Source: Streptomyces humicola
Lineage (GTDB): Bacteria; Actinomycetota; Actinomycetes; Streptomycetales; Streptomycetaceae
Reading direction: 5' to 3'
Assembly (NCBI RefSeq): GCF_024436035.1
Contig: NZ_JANFNG010000001.1
Location: forward strand, 15,689 to 79,688
DNA length: 64,000 bases
Of this stretch, positions 25,047-64,000 are shown one piece after another. Below the pieces are notes generated by a model. It worked only from the letters and a program-made list of their open reading frames with translations, was not told the origin of the DNA and did not search any database. Positions within the stretch are counted from its first letter, which is position 1. The number at the start of each line of letters is the position of its first letter. Both the position numbers and the translations under genes were made by a program.

Positions 25047-26441
25047 TTGACCTCCACGCTTTGCGCATCCACGGTGCTGAAGAACGCTCTCACGCACTAC
25101 CACGCAGAACTGCAGGACGCTATGGCGGCCTTGGAAGGCGACCGCGTCGAAGGCGACGAAGCCTTCTCGCCCGCCTTCCGCCTGCCCGACCCCAGTGCCG
25201 CCCTCGAGCGGTTCTTCTCGGTGTCCGACATCGGCGTCACCGAACTGCCCGCCTATCATGGTCACGCCCTCCGCCTTCTCGACTTGATGCGGAACCCGGG
25301 AACGCATACCACCAAGACGCTCGCCTCGCTCACCATCATCGCCCGGGCCGTGCGGCACATCACCGAGACCGGTGAACGCATCATGATCGTCACCCCGTCG
25401 TCCGCGAACAAGGCCACAGCCCTGCGTGACGCGGTTCATCGAGCCATTAGCGCTGGACTGGTGACGGAGAATCAGCTGCAGATCACCAGTGTGGTGCCCG
25501 CGGTGTCCACCGCCAAGCTCTGGTCGTCACCGTTGAGCGAGCACGCTGAGCTACGACGTCGCAATCCGCTGGTGGTGCACGAATCGGAAGAGCCGGCCTC
25601 GGTCAAGGAACTGGCGTCCGCGTTCGCGGCCGAAAACGCCGAACGTCTCCAAAGACGGTACGGCGTCCGTATCTGGTACACGCTCGGGCTCGACAACTAC
25701 CGGGCCGCGGACATGATCCGCGCGTTCGCCGAGCGGGACCTGCTGCCCGGAGCGGACAGCGGCACTCCAACCCGTACCCATGTCCACTCCGTCTCCAGCG
25801 CCTTCGGCCTGCTCGGTCATGACCTGGGGCACCGCAAGGTCACGGAAAACGGCTGCCGAACGCTGCCGCAGGCCCGCTATTTCCTCGTCCAGCACCTCGG
25901 CACTCCGGACATGGTGCTCAGTCTCCGCCATGGCACACACGACCGCGGAAACCTGCCCGTGTACCGCCTGGACCAGGCCGAGGGCCTGTACCGACAGGAC
26001 GAGGACCCGCACTTCCCTGCGACGACGTTTGATCCCGAGGAACAGCTCGATCCCACTTTCTACACCCGCCGTCCGGTCACCTCTGCGCAGATGGATAGCA
26101 TCATCGCCGCGCAGGGCGGAGGCGGCGTTGTCGTCTCGCTGCACGAGTGCCTGAGCCGGTACGCCGAAGTGCGCGCCCTGCTGGCCGATGCCGATGTCAC
26201 GTTGCCCGTCGACCCCCGACGGCTGCGCGAGTGGTCGCTCGTGATGGCGGTCACCGGAACCCTGAACGCCGCCGACCGCGGGCTGCTGCCGGACAGTGGC
26301 GACGTGCTGATCCACGGCTCCGGCAGCTACAGCGACCGGGATTACCATCCAGTGCCTGCCCATCACCGTTTCACGGCGGCGGACATGACGGCTCTTGCAG
26401 GCCACGTCGAGGACGCAGTCCGCGCCGCAACCTCCCGCTGA
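25047..26441 (+). CDS. divergent fold-type-II PLP-enzyme-like protein (threonine synthase / Trp-synthase-beta superfamily-like)
   Basis: By-eye alignment to ThrC. GVTELP aligns to EGGTPL. NPGTHTTKT aligns to NPTGSFKDR, and the Lys is retained. TPSSANKATAL...ISAGL aligns to ASTGNTSASAAAY..AGI, and the Asn is retained. Spacing is conserved. Confidence 0.35.
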   Translation: MTSTLCASTVLKNALTHYHAELQDAMAALEGDRVEGDEAFSPAFRLPDPSAALERFFSVSDIGVTELPAYHGHALRLLDLMRNPGTHTTKTLASLTIIARAVRHITETGERIMIVTPSSANKATALRDAVHRAISAGLVTENQLQITSVVPAVSTAKLWSSPLSEHAELRRRNPLVVHESEEPASVKELASAFAAENAERLQRRYGVRIWYTLGLDNYRAADMIRAFAERDLLPGADSGTPTRTHVHSVSSAFGLLGHDLGHRKVTENGCRTLPQARYFLVQHLGTPDMVLSLRHGTHDRGNLPVYRLDQAEGLYRQDEDPHFPATTFDPEEQLDPTFYTRRPVTSAQMDSIIAAQGGGGVVVSLHECLSRYAEVRALLADADVTLPVDPRRLREWSLVMAVTGTLNAADRGLLPDSGDVLIHGSGSYSDRDYHPVPAHHRFTAADMTALAGHVEDAVRAATSR

Positions 26442-50360: not shown

Positions 50361-50553
50361 GAGACAGACGTGAAAGCGACTCAATCCCTGCACGAACTGC
50401 AGAGCCTGTGGTTGGACAACATCACCCGCGGCATGCTCGACTCCGGGCAGCTCCAGCACTCCAGCTTCCTCGGACAAGTCCATGGAGGCGCGTCATCCCG
50501 TCGTGAGCCATCAAGCCGGATCAATTGACGACACGTGCTAGAGGAGAGCAGCC

Positions 50554-51591
50554 ATGGCAACCGACACCCCCATGCAGCTCGGCGTGATCGGGCTCGGACG
50601 GATGGGCGCGAACATCGTCCGCAGACTCATGCGGGACGGCCATCACTGTGTGGTGTACGACCTGAACGAGACCGCCGTGAAAGAACTGGAGGGCGAGGGC
50701 GGCGTCGGTGCCAGTTCGCTCGAGGACTTCGTGGCCAAGCTGGAGCGGCCCCGCGCTGCCTGGCTCATGCTGCCTGCCGCCGTCGTACAGCGGACCCTCG
50801 ACCAGCTGGTCGAACTGCTCGATCCGGACGATGCGGTCATCGACGGAGGCAACTCCTACTACCGGGACGACATCACCCGCTCCAAGCAGCTTGCTCCTCG
50901 CCGGATCCACTACCTGGACTGCGGGACCTCAGGCGGTGTCTGGGGACTGGAACGCGGCTACTGTCTCATGATCGGCGGAGAGCCCGAATCCGTTGCCCGA
51001 CTCGACCCGATCTTCCGCACCATCGCGCCGGGTGCCGGCTCCGCGGAACCGACACCGAGCAGGACGCGGACCGACGGGACAGCGCCCGACGGATATCTGC
51101 ACTGCGGACCGAGCGGTGCCGGTCACTTCGTGAAGATGGTCCACAACGGGATCGAGTACGGGATGATGGCCGCGATCGCCGAGGGACTGAGCATCATCAA
51201 GAACGCCGACGCCGGACTGCGCGACCGCACCGCCGACGCCGAGACCGCCCCGCTGCGCGAGCCGGAGGCCTACCAGTACCGGATCGACGTCGGCGAAGTC
51301 GCCGAGGTATGGCGCCGCGGCTCGGTCGTGGGGTCGTGGCTCGTCGACCTGACCGCCGACGCCCTCGCCCGATCGCCGCGGCTGGAGGAGTTCACCGGCC
51401 GCGTCTCGGACTCCGGCGAAGGCCGCTGGACGGTCCTCGCGGCAGTCGACGAAGGCGTACCCGCCGCCGTGATCACCACGGCGCTCACCGAGCGATTCGA
51501 ATCCCGGGGCCTCGGCGAGTACGCCGACAGGGTCCTGTCCGCCATGCGCAGCGAATTCGGCGGCCACGCCGAGAAGAGGAGCCAGCCCTGA
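50554..51591 (+). CDS. 6-phosphogluconate dehydrogenase (decarboxylating)-like, short Gnd/YqeC type
   Basis: MQLGVIGLGRMGANIVRRL Rossmann. Substrate-binding blocks GGNSYY and HFVKMVHNGIEYG. Confidence 0.8.
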   Translation: MATDTPMQLGVIGLGRMGANIVRRLMRDGHHCVVYDLNETAVKELEGEGGVGASSLEDFVAKLERPRAAWLMLPAAVVQRTLDQLVELLDPDDAVIDGGNSYYRDDITRSKQLAPRRIHYLDCGTSGGVWGLERGYCLMIGGEPESVARLDPIFRTIAPGAGSAEPTPSRTRTDGTAPDGYLHCGPSGAGHFVKMVHNGIEYGMMAAIAEGLSIIKNADAGLRDRTADAETAPLREPEAYQYRIDVGEVAEVWRRGSVVGSWLVDLTADALARSPRLEEFTGRVSDSGEGRWTVLAAVDEGVPAAVITTALTERFESRGLGEYADRVLSAMRSEFGGHAEKRSQP

Positions 51592-51699
51592 CGCGTCCGG
51601 ACGATCACGTGATCGCACTCTTCGGAGCCACCGGCGACCTCGCCAAACGCAAATTGATCCCAGGGAAAGCACCATCTCGTCGACACCGCACAGGCGCCG

Positions 51700-52080
51700 C
51701 TATCGCCTGCGCATGATCTGCGGCTCGAAGCTGCCCTCGCGATCGCGTGGCACGTCGACCTCGACCGGGCCGACCTCAGTGATGACGGTCTTCGACCGTG
51801 TTCCATCGCGTGAGTTCCCCGATCCAGCCCCGGGCTTGTCGCGCTTCTCGTAGCCAAGATGGCCGGTGCTCTCGCCCTCGAGGGCAGACTCCAGAACCCT
51901 TTTCGTCAGCTGTTGCAGCGGCCCACACCCGCCGGTCAGCTTGATGTCTTGGGCACGAGCACAGTCGACCAACTGTCCGGTCAACTCAACTGCTCGTCCA
52001 ACGCGTCCGGCTTCTGCTCGATCCGCTGGACTTCCTCAACCGCCTCGGCAGATGCGATCACATCGCTCATCAGGTGTTCT
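51700..52080 (-). mobile_element. IS256-family (mutator-type) transposase N-terminal remnant with internal stop, C-terminally truncated
   Basis: LQQLTKRVLESALEGESTGHLGYEKRDKPGAGSGNSRDGTRSKTVITEVGPVEVDVPRDREGSFEPQI is the classic IS256 block. An upstream piece (MSDVIASAEAVEEVQRIEQKPDALDEQLS) is separated from it by TGA. Confidence 0.7.
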
Positions 52081-52367
52081 TCCTTGATCGGGAGTTACAC
52101 CGATGACCGTACAGTCTCCGGTTGACGAGCGGACTGTGGAGGATCTCTGAATGAACTGGGGGAGTTGTGTCGGTGGCCGATTGGCGACGATGCCGCCGCG
52201 GCCTCTTGACCTGCATAGCCGGGTGATCGACTTCCTTTGCATCGTACTTGTCGCCGCGGGCGCGTTCCACGATGAGGAACGGCCAACGGAGTGCGGCCTC
52301 GTGGGGGCAGACAATGCATTAACCCTCCTGACAGGCCAGGGACGGCAACACAGCAAAGGAGCGGGAA

Positions 52368-53843
52368 ATGGCACTTCAGCGAGACGACTGGCTCGACGTA
52401 GCACGCAAGGTGGACTGGGAGTTCCGCTACGTCGATGAGCGCGAGGTGTATCCGGAGGTTGTCAGCGGTTCTCCGTGGTTGTCCCACGAGTCGTGGAAGA
52501 ACTGGGAGGAGGCGTACCGGAACACCTACCGCGAGTATGTTCAAAACCAGCTCGTCAAGGACGACTCCGTATTCGCGGTCCGGGACGCGCTCGGCAAGGC
52601 TAAGATCACGGAGCGGTTGGACCCTGCGTGGGTGCAGCTGGCAAAGTTCCATAACGGAGCGATTGCCCTCGGGGAATACGCTGCATGTCTGGGCGAGCTG
52701 CGAATGGCGCGCTTCGGCAGGGATGGCGCGTGGCGGACGATGGCGAACCTGGGTGCGCTCGACGAGATCCGGCACACGCAGATTCCGCTGATGATCGGTC
52801 AGGACCTGCTGAAGTTCGACTCCAGGTTCGACTGGACGCATAAGGCGTACCACACCAACGAGTGGGCGATGATCGCTGCCCGTCACCTGTTCGACGACAT
52901 GTTCACCGCTGCGAATGCGTTGGACACCGCGATTCAGCTCACGTTCGTCTTCGAGACCGGGTTTACGAACCTGCAGTTCATCGCTATGGCGGCGATGGCA
53001 GACGGTGCGGACGACCATGTGTTCGAGAAGATGCTGGCGAGCATCCAGACCGATGAGTCACGGCATGCTCAGCAGGGTCATCCTGTGCTGCGGACGCTGA
53101 TCGAGAATGGCGGCAAGGAATACGGACAGTACCTGCTGGACAAGATGTGGTGGCGGTCGTGGCGGATTTTCCTCGCGCTCACCGGCACATCGATGGACTA
53201 CCTGACTCCGGTTCATGCCCGTCGGCAGTCCTTCAAGGAGTTCATGGAGGAGTGGATCAACGACCAGTTCCTCAAGAACCTTGAGGAGTTCGGTCTGGAG
53301 AAGCCATGGTTCTGGGACCAGTTCGTGGAGGAGTTGGATCACGCCCATCACAGCTTCCAGCTCGGTTTGTACACCTACCGGCAGACTCTGTGGTTCGACG
53401 AGCCGGTGCCCAGCCCGGAAGAGCGGGCTTGGCTGGAGGAGAAGTACCCGGGCTGGACTGAGACGTACGGCTCCATCTGGGACAACATCGAGAAGATGTG
53501 GGATGAGCGCGGCGAACTGGGAACGCTGCCGTACTCGTTGCCGTCGCTGTGTAACCTGTGCCAGCTCCCGACGGCGTTCCGGGGGCCTGGCAAGAACACG
53601 GCATGCACTCTCGAGCACAACGGTCGGAAGTACCTTTTCTGCTCCGAGCCGTGCCGGTGGATCTTCCAGCAGCAGCCGGAACGTTTCGCGGAGCATCAGT
53701 CGGTCATCGACCGGATTTTCAAGGGCGACTGCCCCACGGACATCTACGCGGTACTGGACTGGATGGGCGTGGAGCAGCACGGAAAGGACCTCCACAACGG
53801 GGAACACCCGTGGCGGCAGAAGCGCGCGGCGGTGTCGGCGTGA
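52368..53843 (+). CDS. soluble diiron monooxygenase hydroxylase alpha subunit (TmoA/IsoA-like, group 2)
   Basis: Two diiron ligand motifs (E..DEIRH and E..DESRH). About 490 aa. AAGGAG RBS. Confidence 0.85.
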   Translation: MALQRDDWLDVARKVDWEFRYVDEREVYPEVVSGSPWLSHESWKNWEEAYRNTYREYVQNQLVKDDSVFAVRDALGKAKITERLDPAWVQLAKFHNGAIALGEYAACLGELRMARFGRDGAWRTMANLGALDEIRHTQIPLMIGQDLLKFDSRFDWTHKAYHTNEWAMIAARHLFDDMFTAANALDTAIQLTFVFETGFTNLQFIAMAAMADGADDHVFEKMLASIQTDESRHAQQGHPVLRTLIENGGKEYGQYLLDKMWWRSWRIFLALTGTSMDYLTPVHARRQSFKEFMEEWINDQFLKNLEEFGLEKPWFWDQFVEELDHAHHSFQLGLYTYRQTLWFDEPVPSPEERAWLEEKYPGWTETYGSIWDNIEKMWDERGELGTLPYSLPSLCNLCQLPTAFRGPGKNTACTLEHNGRKYLFCSEPCRWIFQQQPERFAEHQSVIDRIFKGDCPTDIYAVLDWMGVEQHGKDLHNGEHPWRQKRAAVSA

Positions 53844-53895
53844 GCATGTACTGGGATTTCCTGCTACCTGCTGAGCAAGAGCTGAAGGAGACGAC

Positions 53896-54144
53896 GTGAT
53901 TATCCCGCTGTACGGCTTCTTCGAAGGGGACTTTCTGGGTCTTGTGTTGATCGCGATGCCGGATCAGCCGGTCTCCACGCTGGCTGAGCAGCTTTCTGGT
54001 TGGGTGCTCGACCTGCGGGTGGATCGCACGGGTGGTGCGCTTGAGGTCCTGAACGAGGCCGGAGAGATTCTCGATCAGAGCAAGTCGATCGAAGAGGCGG
54101 GCCTAGGTTACGGCGACATGTTCCATGTGAGGCAGGCGGCGTGA
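53896..54144 (+). CDS. monooxygenase gamma subunit (TmoB / Toluene_X-like)
   Basis: 82 aa. Position and size match tmoB or isoB. GTG start with AAGGAG RBS. Confidence 0.5.
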   Translation: MIIPLYGFFEGDFLGLVLIAMPDQPVSTLAEQLSGWVLDLRVDRTGGALEVLNEAGEILDQSKSIEEAGLGYGDMFHVRQAA

Positions 54145-54494
54145 GCACTCAAGTCAGCAGCACGTGGGTTCAGGTGACGACGCTGGATGAACTCTGGGAG
54201 GGCGAGATGCTCCCGGTCAGTGTCGATGAGACCGACGTGCTGGTCGTGAACGCCGGGGGGACAGTTGTCGCTTTCGAGGACAGCTGCCCCCACGTGGGCA
54301 CCGCATTGTCCACGGGCACGTTCGACGGCAAAGAGATCATGTGCCCTTCGCATGAGTGGACCTTCACGGCGACCACGGGGAAGGGCATTAATCCGGCGGC
54401 TGCGTGTCTTCGTCGTTATGCGGTTCGGATCGAGGGCGAGGCCGTGTATATCAACCTGCACGACGTCCTGCAAGAGGAGAAGGGAATGGCATGA
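54141..54494 (+). CDS. Rieske-type [2Fe-2S] ferredoxin (TmoC-like)
   Basis: CPHVG...CPSHEW Rieske CxH/CxxH ligands. GTGA overlap with the upstream gene. Confidence 0.8.
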   Translation: MSTQVSSTWVQVTTLDELWEGEMLPVSVDETDVLVVNAGGTVVAFEDSCPHVGTALSTGTFDGKEIMCPSHEWTFTATTGKGINPAAACLRRYAVRIEGEAVYINLHDVLQEEKGMA

Positions 54495-54832
54495 CGGAAA
54501 ACGCTGACGAGCGCCGGACACTCAGTCAGGTTATCGAGCGCGGCGTCGGACCGGTGCTGCAGTCGACACCGCTGGGCAAGGCGATCATCGCGGCCATCGA
54601 GGAAGAGAACGAAGAGGTCTTCGTCGAGGACGCCGGCGCCTACTTCCGGGTGTTCGTGCCGGACGAGTGTCGGGTGACCCGTGAGGCGATCGAAGGCAAC
54701 TACGGCCGCAAGATCCGGTTTCCTGGCGATCTAGAGGTGATCATGTCCTCATTTGCCGGAGTCCTGTCTATGAGTCAGGACCGGGCTGTCTGGTCGCTTC
54801 CGCCACGGCACCTTTCCTCTTCAGGAGCGTGA
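54491..54832 (+). CDS. monooxygenase effector/coupling protein (MmoB/DmpM family, TmoD-like)
   Basis: 113 aa. GPVLQSTPLGKAIIAAIEEENEEVFVEDAGAYFRV resembles effector proteins. ATGA overlap with the ferredoxin gene. Confidence 0.6.
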   Translation: MTENADERRTLSQVIERGVGPVLQSTPLGKAIIAAIEEENEEVFVEDAGAYFRVFVPDECRVTREAIEGNYGRKIRFPGDLEVIMSSFAGVLSMSQDRAVWSLPPRHLSSSGA

Positions 54833-55845
54833 TGACAATGACCGAACGGAGCGAGAAGAAGCTCAAGACATACTCGATGCTCCAGACTGGTCGGAGGTTG
54901 CCGTCCAACTACGAGCTCGTGAGTTCGCGGCTGCACTACCACTACCCGCACAACTTCGAGCTCAGCAACGAGAACCCGGTCAGCAAGTGGTACTACCAGT
55001 ACCGCGAGTCGTCGCCGTTGCAGGCCCATGACTGGGAGGCTTTCGCTGATCCCCGTAGCACGACCTACCGGGGTTACAACGAGCTGCAGAACGACAAAGA
55101 GACCGTTGTCGACGGGCTCCTGCGAGAGATCGACGAGAGCAACTACGACGACGAATTGGCAGCCGAGTGGGTTACCTTCCTGCATCGCTGGTATGGTGCG
55201 TGGCGCTTTCCGGTGCACGGGCTGGAGATGATCAGTGCCTACGTCGGGCAGATGGCTCCGGTGTCTCGTATCACGAACGCTGGTGCGTTCCAGTCTGCTG
55301 ACGAGATGCGCCGGATCCAGCGAATCGCTTACCGTTCAGCGCAGCTGAATGCGCGTAGGGGAGGCTGTGAACCTGGCGAGCAGAAGGCGTTCTGGGAGGA
55401 TGGCGAGCCGTTCCAGGCGGTGCGGGAGCTCATCGAACGGGCGCTGATCGCGTATGACTGGGGCGAGGCGTTCACCGTGCTGAACCTGGTCATCAAGCCA
55501 CATCTCGATAGGTTGCTGAACGAGGAACTGGCAGGGGTGCTGGCTGCGACAAACGGCGACACCATGTTGCGTGAGATTCACTTCTCCCTCAACGAGGACG
55601 CGCTGTGGCATCGGGAATGGTCCCGCGAACTCGCGCGTGTCGCCATCGCTGACACTCCAGTGAATGCTGACCGGTTTGCTGCCTGGGTCGACGAGTGGCG
55701 ACCGAGGGCTGTCGCGGCAGTCGAGAGCTATGTGTCGGTCTTCGAGCAGGCGCCGGTTCGGGTGGATGCGAATGGGGTGTTCGCGCGGATCACGGCGGCT
55801 GCCGAGGAGGACGTGAAGGCGGCTCTCGCGACGCCGGTCGGCTGA
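54829..55845 (+). CDS. soluble diiron monooxygenase hydroxylase beta subunit (TmoE-like)
   Basis: ~338 aa all-helical protein directly after the effector, in the canonical group-2 operon position. Start overlaps the effector stop. Confidence 0.65.
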   Translation: MMTMTERSEKKLKTYSMLQTGRRLPSNYELVSSRLHYHYPHNFELSNENPVSKWYYQYRESSPLQAHDWEAFADPRSTTYRGYNELQNDKETVVDGLLREIDESNYDDELAAEWVTFLHRWYGAWRFPVHGLEMISAYVGQMAPVSRITNAGAFQSADEMRRIQRIAYRSAQLNARRGGCEPGEQKAFWEDGEPFQAVRELIERALIAYDWGEAFTVLNLVIKPHLDRLLNEELAGVLAATNGDTMLREIHFSLNEDALWHREWSRELARVAIADTPVNADRFAAWVDEWRPRAVAAVESYVSVFEQAPVRVDANGVFARITAAAEEDVKAALATPVG

Positions 55846-55924
55846 GCGGCGGAGTGTGGGCTGGAGGGTGAGCTCACGTCCGTAGATGTAACTCGAAACA
55901 ATCTCAAGGAGAACGGAGAGAATT

Positions 55925-56335
55925 ATGGCTGGAGAGCTGAAGTTCTTCTCGCCCGAATGGTGTGCTGCCGCGATTGAAGTGTGCAACGCGAGTGAGCGTA
56001 TGTACCAGGGTTTCAAGGACCCGAAGAACTTCACACACAGGATGGAGTTCGGGTGTACGGACCGGGACCTGCCTACGCATGTGGAGTGGAGGGAAGGCCA
56101 GGTCGTGGCCTGGGGTCCTGCGCAGTACGAAGAGTCGGACCTGTGGCTGAAGATTCACGCGGACATCGACACATGGCGTGATGTGGCCGAGGGCAAGATC
56201 GAGGGTGGGAAGGCCCTGATGGCCGGCCGGATCAAGTTCGTCAAGGGACCGATGTCGGCGGCGATCGAGAATGGCGGGGCGTTCAACGGCTTCCTCGCGG
56301 CCTGGGGTGATGTCCCGACCGACTGGGACGTCTGA
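55925..56335 (+). CDS. SCP2 sterol/lipid-binding domain protein
   Basis: SCP2 C-terminal pattern KALMAGRIKFVKGPMSAAIENGGAFNGFLAAWG. AGGAGA RBS. Confidence 0.7.
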   Translation: MAGELKFFSPEWCAAAIEVCNASERMYQGFKDPKNFTHRMEFGCTDRDLPTHVEWREGQVVAWGPAQYEESDLWLKIHADIDTWRDVAEGKIEGGKALMAGRIKFVKGPMSAAIENGGAFNGFLAAWGDVPTDWDV

Positions 56336-56858
56336 GCAGGAGTTCTGCACGAATAGGTGTGGGAATTGATGGAAGGCGGGTCGGTGTGCTGGTAGCTGGG
56401 GTGTTCATGTCGGCCGTGCTCGCAACTGGAGTCGGTGTGGCGGCTTGGCTTGACACTCGTCCACGTGCACAGACCCCGGGTGTTGATTCTGCAGCCGGAT
56501 GCACCCCGGTCCGCCTTCCGTTCCCCAAGGGTCGACGGGCTGCACGTTGGTGACGATACTGCTGTGATCCTTCGTCCCAGTGCACGCCTTGCCGGGAACC
56601 TGGCAGCGGCAGGCCGATGCATTCCTGGAGGATCTGCAGATTTCACCCCGGGTGACGAACTGGCATCGGAAATATTCCGAGGGCGGTACGTGTCCTGCTG
56701 GCGGTGCTGCTCGGACTGGTTGCGTTTGAGTATGGCTGGTGTAGTCGTAGCGGCGGATGCGAGGCGGTCTTCTCCTACTCCAACTCGGTGTCCACCCCTT
56801 GAATGGGGCGAGGACGCCAGGTCGGATATCCCTAATGGCGCAGGATTCTTTTGAGGTG

Positions 56859-57317
56859 TCAACGATGAAAGCAGCAACGAAGAAGGACTATGGAGTCTCC
56901 CTCTACGACGGGGACCTTTCGAACGGTCTCGCCAATATTTTGGCAACGCTGCTGGCACAAAACTTCGAGAATTTCCCGGAGCGGGTGAAGATAGCTCGGC
57001 GCATGCCGCGGCCAGTGGCTGTTTACAGCACGGATACCGACAGCACTGCAACGATCGTGTTCGGTGCAGAGGAGGCCGTCATTTACAACGATCTGGTCGG
57101 CCGTCCCAGTGTGCTGGTGAAGGCCACCGTCGACCAGATTCTCGATGTCTCTCAGCTCAAAATGGTCGGTTCCGGTCTTGTCCCGGTCGGTTTCTTCACC
57201 AGGCGTGGTGTTCGTGTACTTGGTGAGATTGCCAAGCACCGGCTCGTCGTCAAGGGTCTGCTCACCCACACGGTGATGTCGCTGCAGCTTATCGCCCTGT
57301 TGTCCATCGCTGAATGA
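56859..57317 (+). CDS. second SCP2-like domain protein (low similarity)
   Basis: Pattern VLVKATVDQILDVSQLKM...GFFTRRGVRVLGEIAKHRLVVKGL resembles the SCP2 C-terminus. GAGGTG RBS. Confidence 0.35.
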   Translation, partial: STMKAATKKDYGVSLYDGDLSNGLANILATLLAQNFENFPERVKIARRMPRPVAVYSTDTDSTATIVFGAEEAVIYNDLVGRPSVLVKATVDQILDVSQLKMVGSGLVPVGFFTRRGVRVLGEIAKHRLVVKGLLTHTVMSLQLIALLSIAE

Positions 57318-57507
57318 GAGAAGGCCGGAGGAGAAACGCCACAATTGCGAGGTGGCTTGCGAGGTGGCGGGGTACGCGGTTGCCGGCCGGACGAGAAGTA
57401 TTTTATGCAGCAGTGTGTGGTGGAGCGCTGACAGCATGCGCTCAGTGCCTCGGGGTCGTGGCCGTCGATTGGTAAGGGCCTATAGTGCACGCGCGAAAGG
57501 ACGCGAT

Positions 57508-58116
57508 GTGAGTAGTCATGCGAAAGCCCAGTCCCTGTACAGCCGAACAGATGTGACGTTGCCGTTGCGGGTGAAGAGGGCGGGCCCGGTAACGCGGGTT
57601 CTTCAGGTAGTGGTCATCCTCGCCCTGATCCCGGTGGGCGCGTTCTATCTGTATCCCCGGATATATAATCTTGTGGCCACGCCGTATCGATTGGACAAGG
57701 CGGTGGTCTATGCAAACCGCTACAACCCTGGACTCTTCAAGATCGTGAACGAGGAACAGGTGACTTTGCAGGCATTCGGCGCTCTCGATCAGATGAACGC
57801 AGCCATCGCGAGGGTCCAGGGTGTCGATTCCCAGGTCGCGGACCAGCTGAGGACCTTGGTGGGGCAGATCAGGGGTGATCTGCAGGCGACCTTGAATTCG
57901 GCGGACGGGGACGTGAGCGGTCTTGTCAGCAGCCTCAACGCGTTGGACGCACGGTTGGAGGGACTCAATCCTCCCGTGGACGGAGCAACCAGCGCTGTGG
58001 CACGAGATCGGGCAACGCTTGCCGGGATCCTCGACGAGGCACGGGCTACCGCCGCGAAGGTGCATACCGCCCGGGAAGAAGCGGACGGCTCCGCTCAGAA
58101 TGTTTCTGGGCATTAA
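57508..58116 (+). CDS. membrane-anchored alpha-helical protein, paralog 1 of 5 (unknown function, DUF948-like?)
   Basis: N-terminal TM (VLQVVVILALIPVGAFYLY) followed by an A/Q/L/T/V-rich helical repeat region. The GTG start was chosen inside ORF 57352..58116. Confidence 0.45.
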   Translation: MSSHAKAQSLYSRTDVTLPLRVKRAGPVTRVLQVVVILALIPVGAFYLYPRIYNLVATPYRLDKAVVYANRYNPGLFKIVNEEQVTLQAFGALDQMNAAIARVQGVDSQVADQLRTLVGQIRGDLQATLNSADGDVSGLVSSLNALDARLEGLNPPVDGATSAVARDRATLAGILDEARATAAKVHTAREEADGSAQNVSGH

Positions 58117-58127
58117 CTCGTAGGGAG

Positions 58128-58664
58128 ATGACCGTGTTTTTCGGACGTGCACACGGCCCGGCCCGCATGATTTTGGCCATTGCCGCTGTTGGTGTACTTG
58201 GTCTACTCAGTTTCGTCGTGTTCAACCTGAACCACCGTCTGGACAACCAGCAACGCGCGAACTTGCAGACCTTGGCGGCATCGAAAGCGATCGTCGAAGT
58301 CAACGACAAGGTGACCGAACGCCTGGCCCAACTCACCGCACTCACAGGTACGGCGCGTCAGGCGGTGAGGCAAACCCAAGGGCTGGAACCGCTGTTGGAG
58401 CAGCTGAAGACGGCTGTCCAGCCCGCCGCGGCAGCGGTTTCCACCGGTAGCTCCGGCGCGCAGACCAGCAACCGTCAGCTCACAACGATCCAGAACGTAC
58501 TCAACGAGGTACGCGACAAGGTCGTTCCCTTGGTCGATTCGGCGGGCAAGTTCGGCGACCAGGGAAAACAGCTCGTGTCGATCGTACAGGGACTCGTGTC
58601 CGACCTGCAGGGCGCTGTGGCCGACGCGAAGACGATTAACCAGTCACTGCCACTGCCCAGCTGA
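58128..58664 (+). CDS. membrane-anchored alpha-helical protein, paralog 2 of 5
   Basis: GGGAG RBS. TM (MILAIAAVGVLGLLSFVVF) then Q/A/T/L-rich helices. Confidence 0.55.
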   Translation: MTVFFGRAHGPARMILAIAAVGVLGLLSFVVFNLNHRLDNQQRANLQTLAASKAIVEVNDKVTERLAQLTALTGTARQAVRQTQGLEPLLEQLKTAVQPAAAAVSTGSSGAQTSNRQLTTIQNVLNEVRDKVVPLVDSAGKFGDQGKQLVSIVQGLVSDLQGAVADAKTINQSLPLPS

Positions 58665-58711
58665 CGGATCGATTTCCACCGCCGCGGGAACTGACACACA
58701 AGAGGTGAACC

Positions 58712-59284
58712 GTGAACAGGCGCACGGATATCCCAGACTCGGTGCTACGAAGCTCAAGCACCGTGGCTATCACCACCGAGTGGATGGGGAAGATTGCCGC
58801 CATCATCGCCATAGCACTTTTCTTCCTGGTGATGACGGCTATCCACAAGGGCCTGCTCGTGCAAAGCAGCGCACGATCGATTGTTCAGAACTTCCACACC
58901 ACCAACAATTTTTTCGCCACCCGGGCGGACTTCAATGACCCGGCACTGGCAAAGCAGGAACTGCAAACGCTGGCCGGAGTGCTGACTCAACTCAATGGCA
59001 CCACGGTGCAGGATGTGAATGACCTCGCAGCGACTCTGCCGAACGTCGCCCGTCTGCTGGATGCGGGCAAGGGCGATGTGGACATCGCCAAACAGATGCA
59101 GGGTGTGGCCGGCACGCTGCAGGGTTCGGCCAGCAGCTTGCACCGGATCGCCGGGGGTGCCGAGGGCAGCGTCTCCACCGTCAACAATTCGCTGGCCGCG
59201 GCTATCAACCTGGTCGGTCAACTCAACGCGCAGCTTGCCATTACTGAACAGAAACTGTCAGTACTGCCCGCGACAGGGAGGTAG
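58712..59284 (+). CDS. membrane-anchored alpha-helical protein, paralog 3 of 5
   Basis: TM (IAAIIAIALFFLVMTAI) then repeats such as LQTLAGVLTQLNGTTVQDVNDLAATLPNVARLL. Confidence 0.55.
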   Translation: MNRRTDIPDSVLRSSSTVAITTEWMGKIAAIIAIALFFLVMTAIHKGLLVQSSARSIVQNFHTTNNFFATRADFNDPALAKQELQTLAGVLTQLNGTTVQDVNDLAATLPNVARLLDAGKGDVDIAKQMQGVAGTLQGSASSLHRIAGGAEGSVSTVNNSLAAAINLVGQLNAQLAITEQKLSVLPATGR

Positions 59285-59289
59285 AACCC

Positions 59290-59943
59290 GTGCTTACCAA
59301 GAAGGTCTGGTTCGCGACAGTGGCCACCCTGGGAGGCGGGGCGTGCATTGTCATCGGAATGCTCAACCGATTTGTTCCCCACCTGCAGGACCTCTCCGAC
59401 CCGCTCGGTAGGCCCTCCGCACTGAGTCTTCAGGTCATCCACTCGGCCAGCCAGTTCGACAGCATCACCTCGGTGCTGGTACCCAAGCACCACGACTTGG
59501 GCCAGCGCATCCAGGTACTGCACACCGTCGCCGACGACCTGGACGGGCTGGTGAACAAGGCCGGCGGCCTGGTGCCTTCGGCGCAGGCGGTCAACGGCGA
59601 TACCACCACCGTTCAGGGTGTTGCCACGCCGCTGCCGCCGCTGATCAACAAGGTGACCGGGCGGGCTCAACAGGCCACTCCGCAGGTGAATGCGCTCGGT
59701 AACGCGGTCTCTTCGGTGACGACACAACTGAACGCGGTTGACGTCAACATGACGGCCATTGCCACGGACCTCGGCGCGCTCGGTCCGCGTGCGCAGGAGA
59801 TCGTCGCGATACTTCAGGAGATCGAAGCGGAGTCAGAACGCATCCGGCCTGTCGCTCCGCTGCTGCCGGTGCTCAGCACGGTGACCAACATCACCTCCAG
59901 CAACGGCCAACCGATCCTTGGACTGCTCGGCCCGCTGACGTGA
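59290..59943 (+). CDS. membrane-anchored alpha-helical protein, paralog 4 of 5
   Basis: GGGAGG RBS. TM (VWFATVATLGGGACIVIGML). Similar TVQ/QLN-type repeats. Confidence 0.55.
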   Translation: MLTKKVWFATVATLGGGACIVIGMLNRFVPHLQDLSDPLGRPSALSLQVIHSASQFDSITSVLVPKHHDLGQRIQVLHTVADDLDGLVNKAGGLVPSAQAVNGDTTTVQGVATPLPPLINKVTGRAQQATPQVNALGNAVSSVTTQLNAVDVNMTAIATDLGALGPRAQEIVAILQEIEAESERIRPVAPLLPVLSTVTNITSSNGQPILGLLGPLT

Positions 59944-59979
59944 CCCGGACAACAACAGCCGTACAAGGGAGGCAGCTTT

Positions 59980-60507
59980 ATGTTCCGGCTCTCCTGGGCC
60001 ATTACCCTTATCTTCTCGCTCGGCATGCTGACGGGAATCCTGGTTGTCACACGGGACCTTGCCGAGACCAACGCCATCTTCAAAGACGGCGTCGTTCAAG
60101 CGGAGAAGGTCAACTCCACCACCGATACAGCGTTGGGTGCGACCGGCCAGCTGCCGCCCGCAGACAAGGCGATCGGCCAGGGACTGCCGCAGGTGGTCGA
60201 TGTTCTCGGTTCGCTGAGCAAGGCGCAAACCACGCTCGGCACGCTGGGCAACCAGCTCGGTAATCTCGGCACCGTGCTCACCCGAGCGGATCCGCCGCTG
60301 GTGGGAATTATTGGTGCCGCACAGCAGTCAACCAATCAGGCCAATGCGGCCGCCGCTCCTGCCGCGTCGATCGTGCGGCTGCTCGCCCAGGCGGATCAGC
60401 GAGTACAGGCCCTGGCCCCGCTTTTGGACCAGACCGCGGCACGTGCCCGGAACATCAACTCCAAGCTCCACGTGTTGATGCTGCTGCCGGGCTCCGGAGG
60501 CGGCTGA
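59980..60507 (+). CDS. membrane-anchored alpha-helical protein, paralog 5 of 5
   Basis: GGGAGG RBS. TM (LSWAITLIFSLGMLTGILVV). Similar helical repeats. Confidence 0.55.
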   Translation: MFRLSWAITLIFSLGMLTGILVVTRDLAETNAIFKDGVVQAEKVNSTTDTALGATGQLPPADKAIGQGLPQVVDVLGSLSKAQTTLGTLGNQLGNLGTVLTRADPPLVGIIGAAQQSTNQANAAAAPAASIVRLLAQADQRVQALAPLLDQTAARARNINSKLHVLMLLPGSGGG

Positions 60508-60515
60508 CTACGAAC

Positions 60516-60548
60516 CGTCCTCCACTCTCGCTTGGAGAGTGGAGGACG
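60516..60548 (+). terminator. perfect 14-bp stem / 5-nt loop hairpin (CGTCCTCCACTCTC gcttg GAGAGTGGAGGACG) after paralog 5
   Basis: Read directly from the sequence, 9 nt after the stop codon. Confidence 0.6.
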
Positions 60549-60860
60549 AGTGGATGTTGCTGCGGATGAGGCTGGACTCGCAGTCCAAATGATCATTTCA
60601 AAATGAGATCGGCGTGGCGGTTGCGTAGGTGTACTCGTATCGAGCACCCTCACGCGGCGGCGGAGCCCGCCCCGTCGCAAACCCAGCCAGCTGTTCGCCA
60701 ACCGCGCCTACACACGGGGATGCGCGAACTGGAAGGCGGTGGGGAATCGCTCGGCCGGGTGCGCAAGCCGGGTGGCCGGTCGTAAGCGGTCTCGGAGCGG
60801 GATGGGGGACTGCGAGCTCCACTGCTGGCCCTGGTCGAGCCCGACGAACGCGGGGACCGG

Positions 60861-61140
60861 ATGTCGCCGCTGCGCTGGACGGTGAAGTCGATCCGACAGC
60901 TGGCTGTCGAGCTTTCCGGTCATGGCCACCGCGTCGGCCGCGACACCGATCGTGACCTACTGCGCGCTGAGGGCTTCAGCAGGCCAACGCCAAGGCTCTG
61001 GAGGGCAGGTAGCACCTGGCCCGCGACGCGCAGTTCCGCTACCTCATCGAGCAGGCCCGCGAGCGCCGCGATACCGGGAAGTCGGTCATCGGTACGGACA
61101 CAGCCGCCGAAGCGGAGGAGATCATCCGGCGCTGAGGGAG
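60861..61140 (+). mobile_element. ISAzo13-family transposase remnant (in-frame TAG plus frameshift, truncated)
   Basis: MSPLRWTVKSIRQLAVELSGHGHRVGRDTDRDLLRAEGFS is followed by LQANAKALEG-stop-HLARDAQFRYLIEQARERRDTGKSVIGTDT. This matches the ISAzo13 N-terminus. Confidence 0.55.
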
Positions 61141-62022
61141 CAGGTAGTCCATCGAACAGGCGATCACGGACGCGAAGGACCTTCCTCGGCACCGGCGGCG
61201 CGCGCAGCCGCACCGACCAGGCGCTGGAAGTCGCTGTTCCCTTTCAACTCGACTGTCGAACCGTGCTGGTGCTCTGGTACATCCGCGCCGGCAACGCTCA
61301 ACGCGACGTCCGCGCCCGCCGCGCAGCGGCCCGTGGTACCGCCCCAAGCAGCACGTCTCCCTTCAAGGCAACGATCACCGCATTCCAGCGGGCCCGGATT
61401 ACCGCAGCCGCCAGGCCAACCCGGCTTCGTGCTATTCCACAACGCCCCACTGACCCGTGCCGCTCCCGCCGCGTAACGGCGAAACTTTAGTTCCTCATTT
61501 GTCCTCACACCGCCGTTCCGCAGGAAGGAACGTCTCCTGCGGACAGGCCGAAGCCACAGTAAATACAACCGGAGATTTCTCTGTGGGTTGGGGTCGGTCG
61601 GGCCAGCGGTGCATGTGAGGAGGTAGCGCGTGTTCTCGTCGACGCTCTTGTGGATGTGCGTCCGGACCGCATCTGGAGATCGAGTCGAGGTACGGGCGGG
61701 CGTGAGATTTCGTCTTGGAGGGGGAGGGGCCTAAATCACGTACGTCGACGGTCAGGGGCCGTGCCGGGGCGCACCCTGCCCAGTGGATCGGCCGCAAATG
61801 TCAAGGCCAACCAGGCATCGAGGTGTCTTTTGTGTGCCTATCGGCCGTACTGCTTTGCGGGGGGGAAGCTGCCACGGGTAAGGCAGCGCAATCCGACAGG
61901 CGTGCATCAGGTCCAAAGTGGCGTACCGGCAGGGCCCACCCTCCGACCACCCTCGACCGGTGTGCTCCGTGTGGGGCTGTTGCACTACTGACGTACGTGG
62001 CGGGGAGACCGAGGTGCCCGAT

Positions 62023-62796
62023 ATGAGGGATGTGCCTGTGAACCGCTCCACTGTCGACGGAGGGCTGAAATCAGTATGGGCCGCGCTGGAACTGCTGGAC
62101 TGTTTCGAGGCCGCCCATGAGCTTGGAGTCTCCGACATCGCCCGACAGTTGGGTGTCGCGAAGAGCACTGCTCACCGGCTGCTCACCACGTTGTGTGCCC
62201 GCGGGCTGGTTGAGAAGAACCCGCAAAGCGGGCAATACCACCTGGGTTTGCACTTGTTGGAGTTGGGCCTGCTGGTGGCGGGCCGCTTCCGGCTCCGTCA
62301 GGCCGCGCTGCCGTTGCTGGAAGAGCTGCGGCAGCGTACCGGCTGCACGGTCCACCTGTCGGTCCCAGAGGGTGCGGACGTTTTGTTTGTGGAGCGTCTC
62401 CAGTCGCTGAACGGAATGCATCTGCTGGCCAACGTCGGACGGCGGCTGCCGGCACACTGCACCAGCTCAGGTAAGGTGATGGCGGCCTTCGACGCCACCC
62501 TTGCCCGGCAGCGACGTGAGGCCGGATTCCCCGTCCTCACGTCTTCCACAATTCGCACTCCGGCCGTCTGGGATCGGGTTCTTGTCGAGACGCGACGGCG
62601 CGGGTTCGCAGTCAGCCGCGACGAGATGACGGTCGGGCTGACGTCATTGGCTGCACCGCTCCGCGACAACGCGGGGCGGGCCCGTGCAGCGATCTCCGTC
62701 GTCGGACCGACTCGGGAGGTCGGAGACAGCATTGAACGCTCGGCGCGACTGGTGACCGAGGCTGCGCGCAAGCTCAGCCGCCGCCTGTGCCTGTGA
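62023..62796 (+). CDS. IclR family transcriptional regulator
   Basis: N-terminal HTH (ELGVSDIARQLGVAKSTAHRLLTTL). C-terminal IclR effector domain. Confidence 0.8.
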   Translation: MRDVPVNRSTVDGGLKSVWAALELLDCFEAAHELGVSDIARQLGVAKSTAHRLLTTLCARGLVEKNPQSGQYHLGLHLLELGLLVAGRFRLRQAALPLLEELRQRTGCTVHLSVPEGADVLFVERLQSLNGMHLLANVGRRLPAHCTSSGKVMAAFDATLARQRREAGFPVLTSSTIRTPAVWDRVLVETRRRGFAVSRDEMTVGLTSLAAPLRDNAGRARAAISVVGPTREVGDSIERSARLVTEAARKLSRRLCL

Positions 62797-63158
62797 TGAG
62801 GGCTGCGGGTCGGGAAGATGTGGTGCGTGGCCGCCGCCAGGTGAGTATGGACGCCTGTTCGGGAACGCTGTGAAGATCTGGGGGAGTGCAGGAGCCGGAT
62901 CAATCGGCCATCGGGTTCCGAAGCGCGCTGACAGCGTCCGGAGCATCCGAGTACTGCGAAAGCCGGACGCAAGCCGGGCGATCCACCGTCGGTTACGACT
63001 TTCTGTGCGGCCCCTGCCTGCTGCCCGCCGCGATTGGCGGACGGCGCACCGAGGATTGGAGCGTTCCACGCTCAGGAACGTATGCACGATCGACATCGCC
63101 CCGTCTCTAGCTTCTACGACCAGTGGTCCGTTCCGTACGAGTCGAGGTGGTGTGATAC

Positions 63159-63947
63159 GTGAACGCAGTCGCTCAGGCAGAGGCAGCCGATCTGCTTTTG
63201 TCTGCCTACGAGTCCCGGGTTCCGGTGGATCCGTTGGTGGAGAAGTACGGAGGGCTCACGCTGGACGATGCGTACGAGATCCAGCTGCTCCAGATCCGCC
63301 ACCGGATGATGGCCGGAGCCACGGTGAAGGGGCACAAGGTGGGCCTGTCGTCACCCGCCATGCAGCGGCAGATGGGCGTCAGCCAGCCGGACTACGGCCA
63401 TCTGCTCGATGACATGTTCTGGCTCGAACACCTACCGATCCCGGCCGACCGGTTCCTTCAGCCACGGGTCGAGCCGGAGGTCGCTTTCGTGCTCAAGCGT
63501 CCGTTGCAGGGACCCGGTGTGACGGTTGCCGAGGCAGCTGCGGCAGTCGACTTCGTCCTGCCCGCACTCGAGCTCATCGACAGCCGGATCCGGGACTGGA
63601 AGATCAGCATTTTCGACACCATCGCGGACAACGCGTCATCGGGCGGCGTGGTGCTCGGCAGCACCCTCACGCGTCTGTCTGCAGTGGATCTGCGTCTCGT
63701 TGGCTGCAACCTGCACAAGGACGGTGAGCTCGTTGCCACGGGCGCGGGCGGCGCGGTCCTGGGGTCGCCGCTGACGTCGCTGGTGTGGCTGGCCAACACG
63801 GTCGGCGCGCATGGCGTCGCACTGGAGGCAGGACACGTCGTGCTGCCCGGTTCTGTCACCGCGTCGATCCCGGTTCGCGGAGGCGACAGCGTGACCGCCG
63901 CCTTCGCCGGGCTCGGCAGCGTGACCGCGCGTTTCACGGAGGAGTGA
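63159..63947 (+). CDS. 2-keto-4-pentenoate hydratase (MhpD/XylJ/BphH family)
   Basis: GTG start. Hydratase/FAH-family blocks (LDDAYEIQ, EPEVAFVL, AAVDFVLPALELIDSRI). Confidence 0.8.
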   Translation: MNAVAQAEAADLLLSAYESRVPVDPLVEKYGGLTLDDAYEIQLLQIRHRMMAGATVKGHKVGLSSPAMQRQMGVSQPDYGHLLDDMFWLEHLPIPADRFLQPRVEPEVAFVLKRPLQGPGVTVAEAAAAVDFVLPALELIDSRIRDWKISIFDTIADNASSGGVVLGSTLTRLSAVDLRLVGCNLHKDGELVATGAGGAVLGSPLTSLVWLANTVGAHGVALEAGHVVLPGSVTASIPVRGGDSVTAAFAGLGSVTARFTEE

Positions 63948-63949
63948 GC

Positions 63950-64000
63950 ATGACGAAGGCGACGGCCGCGATCGTCGGCCCGGGCAATATCGGCACCGAC
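63950..64000 (+). CDS. acetaldehyde dehydrogenase (acetylating), MhpF/DmpF-like, 5' end only
   Basis: MTKATAAIVGPGNIGTD is the characteristic N-terminal NAD motif. The ATG overlaps the hydratase stop. Truncated by the window edge. Confidence 0.6.
   Translation, partial: MTKATAAIVGPGNIGTD

Follow-up and report, generated by a model that had tools for sequence, protein, structure and literature searches.

A probable mosaic catabolic region in Streptomyces humicola combining a predicted toluene-monooxygenase-type enzyme, a seven-gene cassette and a meta-cleavage operon

The DNA described here is a window of 64,000 nucleotides (the whole stretch that was analysed) from a contig of Streptomyces humicola RB6PN25. 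A further 5.3 kb of the same contig past the window end, which we call the extension, was searched alongside it. The right-hand end of the window carries five genes for a toluene-monooxygenase-type diiron enzyme, a cassette of seven small genes and the beginning of an operon for lower meta-cleavage enzymes, with the remains of two insertion sequences (IS), one at the left border and one behind the cassette. The features lie in the following order, with coordinates counted from the first letter of the window and the strand in brackets.

51588-51665 (+): 5′ remnant of zwf (glucose-6-phosphate dehydrogenase), last gene of its operon, cut at about codon 36 at the left junction
51661-52114 (-): IS256-family transposase remnant, 5′/N-terminal part of the gene only
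52368-53843 (+): hydroxylase alpha subunit, TmoA/TouA-like, 491 amino acids; Pfam Phenol_Hydrox (E 1e-60) and YHS; WP_255917953
53896-54144 (+): hydroxylase gamma subunit, TmoB-like, 82 amino acids; Pfam TmoB, 30.8 bits (cut-off 25)
54141-54494 (+): Rieske-type [2Fe-2S] ferredoxin, TmoC-like, 117 amino acids; Pfam Rieske (E 3e-18)
54491-54832 (+): effector/coupling protein, TmoD/MmoB-like, 113 amino acids; Pfam MmoB_DmpM (E 1e-18)
54832-55845 (+): hydroxylase beta subunit, TmoE-like, 335-337 amino acids; Pfam Phenol_Hydrox (E 6e-59); NCBI NGB36_00335, 337 amino acids
55925-56335 (+): cassette gene 1, soluble SCP2-domain protein (SCP2A), 136 amino acids; Pfam SCP2, 25.5 bits (cut-off 21.3)
56865-57317 (+): cassette gene 2, predicted soluble SCP2-fold protein (SCP2B), 150 amino acids; no Pfam match, fold from AlphaFold2 and Foldseek
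57436-58116 (+): cassette gene 3, single-pass membrane protein TM1, start codon uncertain; from hydropathy
58134-58664 (+): cassette gene 4, single-pass membrane protein TM2, 176 amino acids; from hydropathy and homologues
58712-59284 (+): cassette gene 5, single-pass membrane protein TM3, 190 amino acids; from hydropathy and homologues
59290-59943 (+): cassette gene 6, single-pass membrane protein TM4, 217 amino acids, NGB36_00365; from hydropathy and homologues
59980-60507 (+): cassette gene 7, single-pass membrane protein TM5, 175 amino acids; from hydropathy and homologues
60713-61101 (+): ISAzo13-family transposase remnant, ~390 bp; Pfam DDE_Tnp_ISAZ013, positions 15-57 of 308
62023-62796 (+): IclR-family transcriptional regulator; Pfam IclR_C (E 1e-33) and HTH_IclR (E 2e-15)
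63159-63947 (+): 2-keto-4-pentenoate hydratase, DmpE/MhpD-like, first of six operon genes; Pfam FAA_hydrolase and the NCBI name
63950-64000 (+): acetylating acetaldehyde dehydrogenase, DmpF-like, first 17 codons, translation MTKATAAIVGPGNIGTD; the full gene extends beyond the window

The five monooxygenase genes are intact, overlapping or adjacent, and stand in the order A-B-C-D-E of tmoABCDE. They make up most of what we call module 1, which spans 52.4-56.3 kb and possibly reaches 57.3 kb. The translated Rieske ferredoxin shows a CPH...CPSH motif. When compared with solved structures, the alpha subunit matches TouA (E 3e-147), TmoA (1e-145), phenol hydroxylase (2e-47) and MmoX (1e-26). Its identity is 84-85% to a protein from an Acidimicrobiales metagenome-assembled genome (MAG), 50% to the enzyme on Rhodococcus plasmid pRB98, 47% to TouA, 43% to both IsoA of Nocardioides sp. 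WS12 and XamoA of Xanthobacter Py2, and 28% to a group-1 alpha subunit. All six diiron ligands are kept (E104, E134, H137, E197, E231 and H234 in TouA numbering, in two E...EXXH motifs), and so are T201, N202 and F205. The pocket residues I100, G103, A107, F176, L192, F196 and F205 match those of TouA, TmoA or the Rhodococcus enzyme. At position 141 a P replaces the Q, as throughout the clade to which this subunit belongs, while the IsoA and XamoA pocket differs, with D141, T192 and V/L196. The C-terminal YHS domain holds a four-Cys site (C395, C398, C425 and C429). Judged by these relationships, the alpha subunit is of the group-2 type of soluble diiron monooxygenase and is not a Streptomyces paralogue.

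The closest well-characterised parallels are TouABCDEF of Pseudomonas sp. OX1 and TmoABCDEF of P. mendocina KR1, which encode the same five proteins in the same order and whose alpha subunits align with ours from end to end. The iron ligands, T201, I100, A107, F176, L192 and F196 are identical in all three. There are also clear differences: the window alpha subunit belongs to a separate clade, position 141 has changed from Q to P, the four-Cys YHS site is complete here and lacking in TouA, and there is no tmoF or touF, the position of which is occupied by an SCP2-domain gene. A similar linkage of a monooxygenase to meta-cleavage genes is found on plasmid pBN2 of Paraburkholderia aromaticivorans.

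Module 2 is the cassette of seven genes that fills 55.9-60.5 kb between the beta subunit gene and the ISAzo13 scar. It accounts for nearly half of the low-GC stretch described below and had been overlooked by the first-pass annotation of this window. Gene 1 starts 79 bp after the beta subunit gene, at the canonical tmoF position, and its product is without a hydrophobic segment; it is 94% identical to its counterpart in Streptomyces sp. NPDC005202, 73% to that of the Acidimicrobiales MAG and 55-56% to that of Rhodococcus pRB98. The product of gene 2 appears, from its modelled structure, to be a second SCP2-fold protein: the AlphaFold2 model has a pLDDT (predicted local distance difference test) of 89.8 and its best Foldseek match in the PDB is UbiJ-SCP2 (6h6p, E 4e-6, template-modelling score 0.72), with sterol carrier proteins as the next-best matches. 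Most of its 202 homologues are 60-78% identical to it. A 529-bp spacer (56336-56864, GC 0.61) separates the two SCP2 genes; it contains no convincing open reading frame and shows no homology to the shorter spacers that relatives have at the equivalent site.

Each of the remaining five proteins, TM1-TM5 (175-226 amino acids), has exactly one strongly hydrophobic segment, near its N-terminus, and is predicted to be helical elsewhere. Positive residues are balanced across the membrane helix, giving no preferred orientation, and searches of Pfam and NCBIfam returned nothing beyond sub-threshold matches of coiled-coil type. TM1, which is helical outside its one hydrophobic segment, is collinear and 44-55% identical in six other loci. 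TM2 has homologues on 18 plasmids (17 from Rhodococcus and one from Gordonia) at 54-65% identity. TM4 has just eight homologue clusters in a search of 5.8 billion proteins, and in its AlphaFold2 model, of low confidence (pLDDT 56), the membrane helix leads into a long helical hairpin. We considered whether the five might be paralogues of each other: pairwise BLAST matches are weak (TM4-TM5, 3e-6) but profile-profile probabilities do not exceed 12%, and we make no such claim.

The cassette is not confined to this strain. All seven genes are collinear, at 44-94% identity, on Rhodococcus pRB98 (locus L084), in Streptomyces sp. NPDC005202 (L087) and in Nocardioides sp. WS12 (L088). Six of them are present in a soil-metagenome locus (L083) and in the RHA1 (L085) and DK17 (L086) loci, where SCP2A is a fragment at most. 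The settings, with protein identities to the window, are as follows.

Rhodococcus oxybenzonivorans pRB98: two cassette copies, one of them immediately behind a toluene-monooxygenase-like operon complete with a reductase gene; 48-64%
Nocardioides sp. WS12: cassette within the isoprene cluster; 50-67%
Streptomyces sp. NPDC005202: cassette beside a group-1 phenol hydroxylase, a catechol 2,3-dioxygenase and a reductase; 44-94%
R. jostii RHA1 pRHL2 and Rhodococcus sp. DK17 pDK2: cassette behind lower meta-cleavage genes, with SCP2 gene 1 reduced to a fragment and the other six genes intact; 47-64%
Gordonia rubripertincta CWB2: cassette after styAB, gene sizes and order equal (L089); TM2 54%
Soil metagenome contig: six cassette genes and, up to 10 kb away, no oxygenase; 45-64%

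The neighbours of the cassette thus include toluene-type, isoprene, phenol-hydroxylase, alkylbenzene and styrene clusters, and it accompanies at least four oxygenase classes: diiron monooxygenases of groups 1 and 2, Rieske dioxygenase pathways and a flavin styrene monooxygenase. It is annotated as hypothetical nearly everywhere, and the first SCP2 gene alone has been named, in two Streptomyces records. The literature does contain a trace of it. A 2026 paper on R. opacus 1CP reports "seven hypothetical genes" that respond to styrene, both in that strain and in CWB2; five of the products have a membrane segment, and the function of the whole set is given there as unknown (PMC13101518). The 1CP set, on plasmid pR1CP1, is very similar to the CWB2 set (PMC13101518), which lies in the styrene cluster of pGCWB2 and is of the same family, order and sizes as ours; a homologue of SCP2B with an R1CP locus tag is also present on an R. 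opacus plasmid. In 1CP and CWB2 the cassette accompanies a flavin styrene monooxygenase, whereas here it follows a diiron enzyme. No fold is named in PMC13101518; the window has one Pfam match to SCP2 and a second protein with the SCP2 fold by structure prediction. The Nocardioides WS12 genome paper leaves the cassette unmentioned, and we found no literature that combines Rhodococcus, toluene monooxygenase and SCP2.

Two of these loci deserve a closer comparison. On pRB98 all seven cassette genes come after the monooxygenase genes, in the order found in the window, and a reductase gene is kept between the beta subunit gene and the first SCP2 gene. The pRB98 monooxygenase is no closer to ours than are the Pseudomonas enzymes (alpha 50-51%, beta 41%), and it falls in the clade of characterised enzymes. 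In WS12 the isoABCDEF genes follow the group-2 order, with the cassette a few genes downstream. The differences there are the low identity of the alpha subunit, the presence of isoF and glutathione genes, and the pocket residues.

Some cassette loci carry an eighth family, a membrane protein of ~350 amino acids that is internally duplicated and has four predicted helices (L003 13936-14994, L086 6287-7333 and L089 9117-10349). A half-size version is present on pRB98 (L084 1101-1655). No remnant of this protein was found in the window.

With cassette gene 7 on its left and the IclR gene on its right, the ISAzo13 remnant parts the low-GC modules from module 3, the IclR regulator plus the lower meta-cleavage operon, which occupies 62.0-68.4 kb. 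Its DNA is 72-75% identical to Streptomyces ISAzo13 genes. The operon of module 3 encodes, in order, the hydratase, acetaldehyde dehydrogenase, an aldolase, 4-oxalocrotonate decarboxylase, a tautomerase and a semialdehyde dehydrogenase; the Pfam matches are FAA_hydrolase (twice), AcetDehyd-dimer, HMGL-like with DmpG_comm, Tautomerase and Aldedh. It ends at ~68.4 kb, ~4.4 kb past the window; beyond it come 577 bp of low-GC spacer and then a gene whose product is a secreted protein. All six enzymes of the Dmp/Xyl lower pathway (dmpCEFGHI) are therefore together in one operon. Unlike the Dmp/Xyl systems, the locus has no dmpB or dmpD that we could find, and the nearest operon is on a Streptomyces plasmid, not in Pseudomonas. 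That nearest operon, on the 639-kb plasmid of Streptomyces sp. NBC_01454, is collinear with ours; five of its proteins are 79-89% identical to their counterparts here, with the hydratase at 81%, and the sixth, the tautomerase, is 59% identical. Identities to the meta-cleavage proteins of the Acidimicrobiales MAG are lower, at 64-78%. By these affinities the operon is of Streptomyces type.

Much of the gene content had been named by the first-pass annotation, which was made from the letters and the reading frames, and its gene calls stand. The hydroxylase set is complete, with the Pfam families matched in the TmoABCDE sequence. The alpha subunit is of the group-2 type and not a native Streptomyces paralogue, its best match among solved structures being TouA and its closest relatives MAG sequences from Acidimicrobiia and Mycobacterium. 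The segment does begin right after a broken IS256 transposase on the minus strand, the broken ISAzo13 transposase is present as a remnant, and the IclR regulator and the 2-keto-4-pentenoate hydratase are both confirmed by Pfam. The acetaldehyde dehydrogenase is a full gene on the contig, although only 17 of its codons are within the window. As for the aldolase and catechol dioxygenase genes looked for beyond 64 kb, the aldolase is there on the same contig but there is no catechol 2,3-dioxygenase in the next 5.3 kb.

At its left border the region cuts into an operon of the host. A tkt-gnd-zwf operon occupies 48312-51665 and is without a transaldolase gene between tkt and gnd. Directly after the gnd stop codon are 26 amino acids of Zwf, 77% identical to residues 11-36 of the Zwf encoded on a linear plasmid of Streptomyces sp. 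NBC_00467; they match Pfam G6PD_N weakly and under the cut-off (E 0.0024, 19 bits). The other 450 residues of Zwf were not found in the window or the extension. The IS256 remnant that follows covers positions 11-96 of 379 of Pfam Transposase_mut (E 8e-19), and at DNA level it shares 81% identity with an S. viridifaciens IS256. Because a truncated host zwf abuts a truncated IS256, we read the left junction as a deletion or recombination scar. The NBC_00467 plasmid carries an intact tkt-gnd-zwf operon, likewise without the transaldolase gene, and its Gnd is 82% identical to ours. Since tkt belongs to an operon that is also borne on a Streptomyces linear plasmid, the neighbourhood is accessory rather than core.

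Base composition changes sharply at this border. Background 2-kb windows outside the region have a GC content of 0.680 +/- 0.014 (range 0.653-0.716, n=26), lower than the ~70% first estimated for the upstream DNA. GC falls abruptly at ~52.0 kb and is 0.601-0.619 in the four 2-kb windows of 52-60 kb (z = -4.2 to -5.4). The low-GC stretch had been thought to continue at ~60% to the end of the window; it is over by ~60 kb, and the two windows of 60-64 kb have values of 0.653 and 0.661 (z = -1.8 and -1.3). The meta-cleavage operon (63.2-68.4 kb) is host-like, with GC 0.67-0.70, GC at third codon positions (GC3) 0.82-0.87 and T at third positions (T3) 0.06-0.11. We also compared the codons of 14 island genes with those of 34 background genes by Mann-Whitney tests. 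T3 rises from 0.081 in the background to 0.14-0.15 in the island and third-position C falls from 0.50 to 0.35, with p-values of 2e-6 for T3, 7e-6 for third-position GC skew and 9e-5 for GC3. The dinucleotide signature deviates only mildly. When the island proteins are rewritten with the codon usage of the 34 background genes, the cassette genes have an expected GC of 0.658 against an observed 0.616, a deficit of 4-6 GC points. The shift towards T-ending codons that had been noticed by eye is therefore real at group level, but the alpha subunit gene has a host-like GC3.

The modules also have different affinities. For the monooxygenase and both SCP2 genes the closest counterparts are those of the Acidimicrobiales MAG, at 84-85% for the alpha subunit and 72-73% for the SCP2 proteins, and those of a degraded Streptomyces copy. 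In the MAG one uninterrupted block holds the monooxygenase genes, two SCP2 genes with a membrane-protein gene between them, and meta-cleavage genes, all without an intervening IS, so the pairing of monooxygenase and meta-cleavage genes is not peculiar to our strain. The degraded copy of the monooxygenase is in Streptomyces sp. NPDC005202 (JBEXHW010000065.1, L087 8156-9525), with 84-87% DNA identity and SCP2 proteins that are 90-94% identical; an internal deletion has fused residues 1-151 of the alpha subunit to residues 188-335 of the beta subunit. The five membrane proteins are only 44-55% identical to that copy and are nearer to versions from Rhodococcus and soil metagenomes. Taken by relatives and composition, the region is three modules and not one island. 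As a side observation, genes for a group-1 phenol hydroxylase (intact), a reductase and a catechol 2,3-dioxygenase lie next to the degraded copy in NPDC005202.

We placed the alpha subunit among its homologues with a neighbour-joining tree (200 bootstraps). It groups with the Acidimicrobiales MAG and three sequences from Acidimicrobiia (100% bootstrap), and these are next joined by a 65-69% identical clade of sequences from Mycobacterium, Acidimicrobiia and Streptosporangiaceae MAGs, again with 100% support. The whole lineage is weakly joined, at 66%, to a large soil clade of Acidobacteria type. In a search of 5.8 billion proteins every named match above ~60% identity came from a MAG or a metagenome, and some of the clusters have 245-660 members; our alpha subunit belongs there to a cluster represented by an 84% relative. 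A genome scan with the alpha subunit found no other Streptomyces genome with an intact copy.

We think it likely that the region from 51.67 kb to ~4.4 kb past the window is a mosaic catabolic region that arose by IS-mediated rearrangement within the accessory tkt-gnd-zwf operon. The idea of an acquired oxidation island, as first proposed, survives in so far as the IS scars, the foreign alpha subunit and the full lower meta-cleavage operon are concerned; it has to be amended to a three-part mosaic, from which two partners are absent locally. If the genes are expressed and the modules work together, a pathway can be sketched by homology to toluene-4-monooxygenase (T4MO) and toluene/o-xylene monooxygenase (ToMO). 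Electrons would pass from NADH to a reductase encoded elsewhere, then to the Rieske ferredoxin and on to the diiron site of the alpha subunit, with the effector gating oxygen activation. The hydroxylase would convert a small hydrophobic ring compound (benzene, toluene or phenol), stepwise, to catechol. The ring would be cleaved by a dioxygenase that is not encoded at the locus, and the fission product could then be carried through the 4-oxalocrotonate branch of module 3 to pyruvate and acetyl-CoA. An aromatic substrate is weakly suggested by the higher identity to aromatic enzymes, the pocket residues and the meta-cleavage linkage.

A number of observations weigh against this reading. The border of the acquired DNA is defined on the left side only. 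The window contains no tRNA gene and no meaningful flanking repeat, and there is no integrase among the genes scanned; that scan covered 34 called genes and the precomputed Pfam matches for 42.4-64 kb and the extension, with 14 open reading frames and the uncalled stretches unscanned. A tblastn search with seven reductase probes (pRB98, WS12, a DmpP-type gene, XamoF, Paraburkholderia BN5 and two MAGs) found no reductase of TmoF/TouF/IsoF type in the window or the extension, and the same DNA was negative with a catechol 2,3-dioxygenase probe from Streptomyces sp. NPDC005202 and with a semialdehyde hydrolase probe. Because these three partners are missing there, pathway function is unproven. The substrate assignment is weak because the alpha subunit lies in a separate and uncharacterised clade (66-76% support) and carries P at position 141: its lineage falls outside the clade that holds every characterised enzyme, the monophyly of which is supported at 76%, it does not branch with TouA, TmoA or Tbu-type enzymes, and every labelled member of its own clade is a MAG. 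The cassette, in turn, occurs in isoprene and styrene clusters as well. Finally, the GC3 of the alpha subunit gene (0.83) is within the host range, and most of the GC deficit of the monooxygenase genes, roughly two thirds, is due to amino-acid composition, since host codons alone already give a GC of 0.635 where 0.615 is observed.

The scan and probe searches also returned no Glyoxalase-family gene among the genes scanned, and no HbpS-like protein or XylT-type ferredoxin in the window and extension. As the locus lacks both a reductase and a ring-cleaving dioxygenase, it can only work with genes encoded elsewhere.

Could the substrate instead be an alkene or some other biogenic volatile (isoprene, ethene, propene or a terpene, for example), the place of the monooxygenase beside meta-cleavage genes being an accident of rearrangement? 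Isoprene and alkene monooxygenases belong to group 2, and the cassette is found within the isoABCDEF cluster of Nocardioides WS12 and in clusters for the side-chain oxidation of styrene. The ISAzo13 scar parts the monooxygenase from the meta-cleavage genes, and the histories of the two modules differ. The clade is uncharacterised, with its distinctive Q141P, and the strain is of peat-soil origin. On the other hand, the alpha subunit is closer to TouA and the Rhodococcus enzyme (47-50% identity) than to IsoA and XamoA (43%), and it has L192 and F196 as in the aromatic enzymes, not the T192 and V/L196 of IsoA and XamoA. No isoGHIJ, glutathione or coenzyme-M genes are present among the genes called or scanned, and in the Acidimicrobiales MAG the monooxygenase is joined to meta-cleavage genes without an intervening IS. 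On balance we find an alkene substrate unlikely.

It is similarly doubtful that the region is a decaying relic, in which rearrangement took away the reductase and the ring-cleavage gene and left the rest to become pseudogenes. Two transposase remnants and a truncated zwf are what such a history would leave behind, the reductase, catechol 2,3-dioxygenase and semialdehyde hydrolase are absent locally, and the nearest Streptomyces copy, in NPDC005202, has been reduced to an alpha-beta deletion fusion. Yet the five monooxygenase genes and the seven cassette genes are all full-length open reading frames with the catalytic residues conserved, and SCP2 gene 1 follows the beta subunit gene after 79 bp just as it does in the Acidimicrobiales MAG. 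Nor is the missing reductase a sign of loss here, because the lack of a linked one is the rule in the clade: the seven probes found one at 0 of 20 loci, so the absence is a property of the lineage and not damage specific to this strain.

Beyond the clade, the same probes detect a TmoF-like reductase gene within 10 kb at only 3 of 60 other group-2-type loci, from Acidobacteria, Chloroflexota and other soil MAGs (L021-L081), and such reductase-free operons may be usual among uncultured soil lineages.

The last alternative, that there was no horizontal transfer and that the low GC reflects an unusual amino-acid composition of native genes, can draw on the re-encoded monooxygenase genes, the host-like GC3 of the alpha subunit gene and the mild dinucleotide deviation, but it is most improbable and already largely refuted by the codon statistics (p = 2e-6 to 9e-5 against the 34 background genes), the 4-6 GC points by which the cassette genes fall below expectation, the IS scars and truncated host gene at the border, the nearest relatives in another class of Actinomycetota, and the fact that the sole other Streptomyces copy found is a deleted remnant.

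A mosaic region built by IS-mediated rearrangement thus remains the reading we prefer. That toluene-monooxygenase-type enzymes are linked to meta-cleavage genes is textbook biology, and the island as such is unsurprising. Three other aspects are of wider interest. An intact copy in a cultured type strain would make a clade otherwise seen only in MAGs and metagenomes accessible to experiment. The clade-wide lack of a linked reductase raises the question of where the electrons come from. And the cassette, conserved and described before from styrene clusters, is now also known beside toluene-type, isoprene, phenol-hydroxylase and alkylbenzene clusters.

What might the cassette do? Its recurrence beside oxygenases for volatile hydrophobic compounds, together with two SCP2 folds, suggests that it may capture and hand over substrates dissolved in the membrane, or else protect the membrane. 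The UbiJ SCP2 domain serves the soluble enzymes of ubiquinone synthesis, which offers an analogy for the cassette carriers. By this analogy, five helical single-pass proteins could form a membrane-anchored assembly, from which two cytosolic SCP2-fold carriers would pick up membrane-dissolved substrate and deliver it to whichever soluble oxygenase is encoded nearby. The SCP2 fold of the two proteins makes this a testable hypothesis of substrate handling. As a more tentative proposal, which taken jointly we regard as possible but rather less than even, the cassette would be a general apparatus for volatile hydrophobic substrates in Actinomycetota, and RB6PN25 perhaps the sole cultured carrier of an abundant soil clade of group-2-type monooxygenases that needs no dedicated reductase.

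Further relatives of the monooxygenase lie in two other MAGs. The Acidimicrobiia MAG SAW267 has three alpha genes on three contigs (L004, L005 and L072), 75-76% identical to ours, with no detectable beta, gamma, ferredoxin or effector gene adjoining them. In an Actinomycetota MAG of the 68% clade (L010 9207-10034 and 14537-18669) a MEDS-domain sensor gene precedes the five monooxygenase genes, and an AraC regulator and an IS21 element lie downstream; the IS21 context suggests that the lineage is mobile there too.

Regarding the strain itself, S. humicola was described from Thai peat swamp forest soil, according to a reference cited in PMC10525797. The designation RB6PN25 has no match in the literature, and the species name is mentioned only in passing, in two taxonomy papers. 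Promoter and terminator searches gave nothing useful.

The remainder of the window carries genes for regulators, glycoside hydrolases, proteases and SpoIIE phosphatases. The first-pass annotation had set the island beside core genes such as rpoA and tkt, a view that has to be dropped: tkt is part of the accessory operon, and the rpoA-like gene (18938-20230, minus strand) stands alone among accessory genes. It has all three RpoA Pfam domains, lies outside any ribosomal-protein operon, and has a zinc carboxypeptidase gene on one side and unrelated genes as its other neighbours; it is probably a second copy. At 25047-26441 (plus strand) there is a full-length match to the uncharacterised family DUF6002 (E 7.5e-194).

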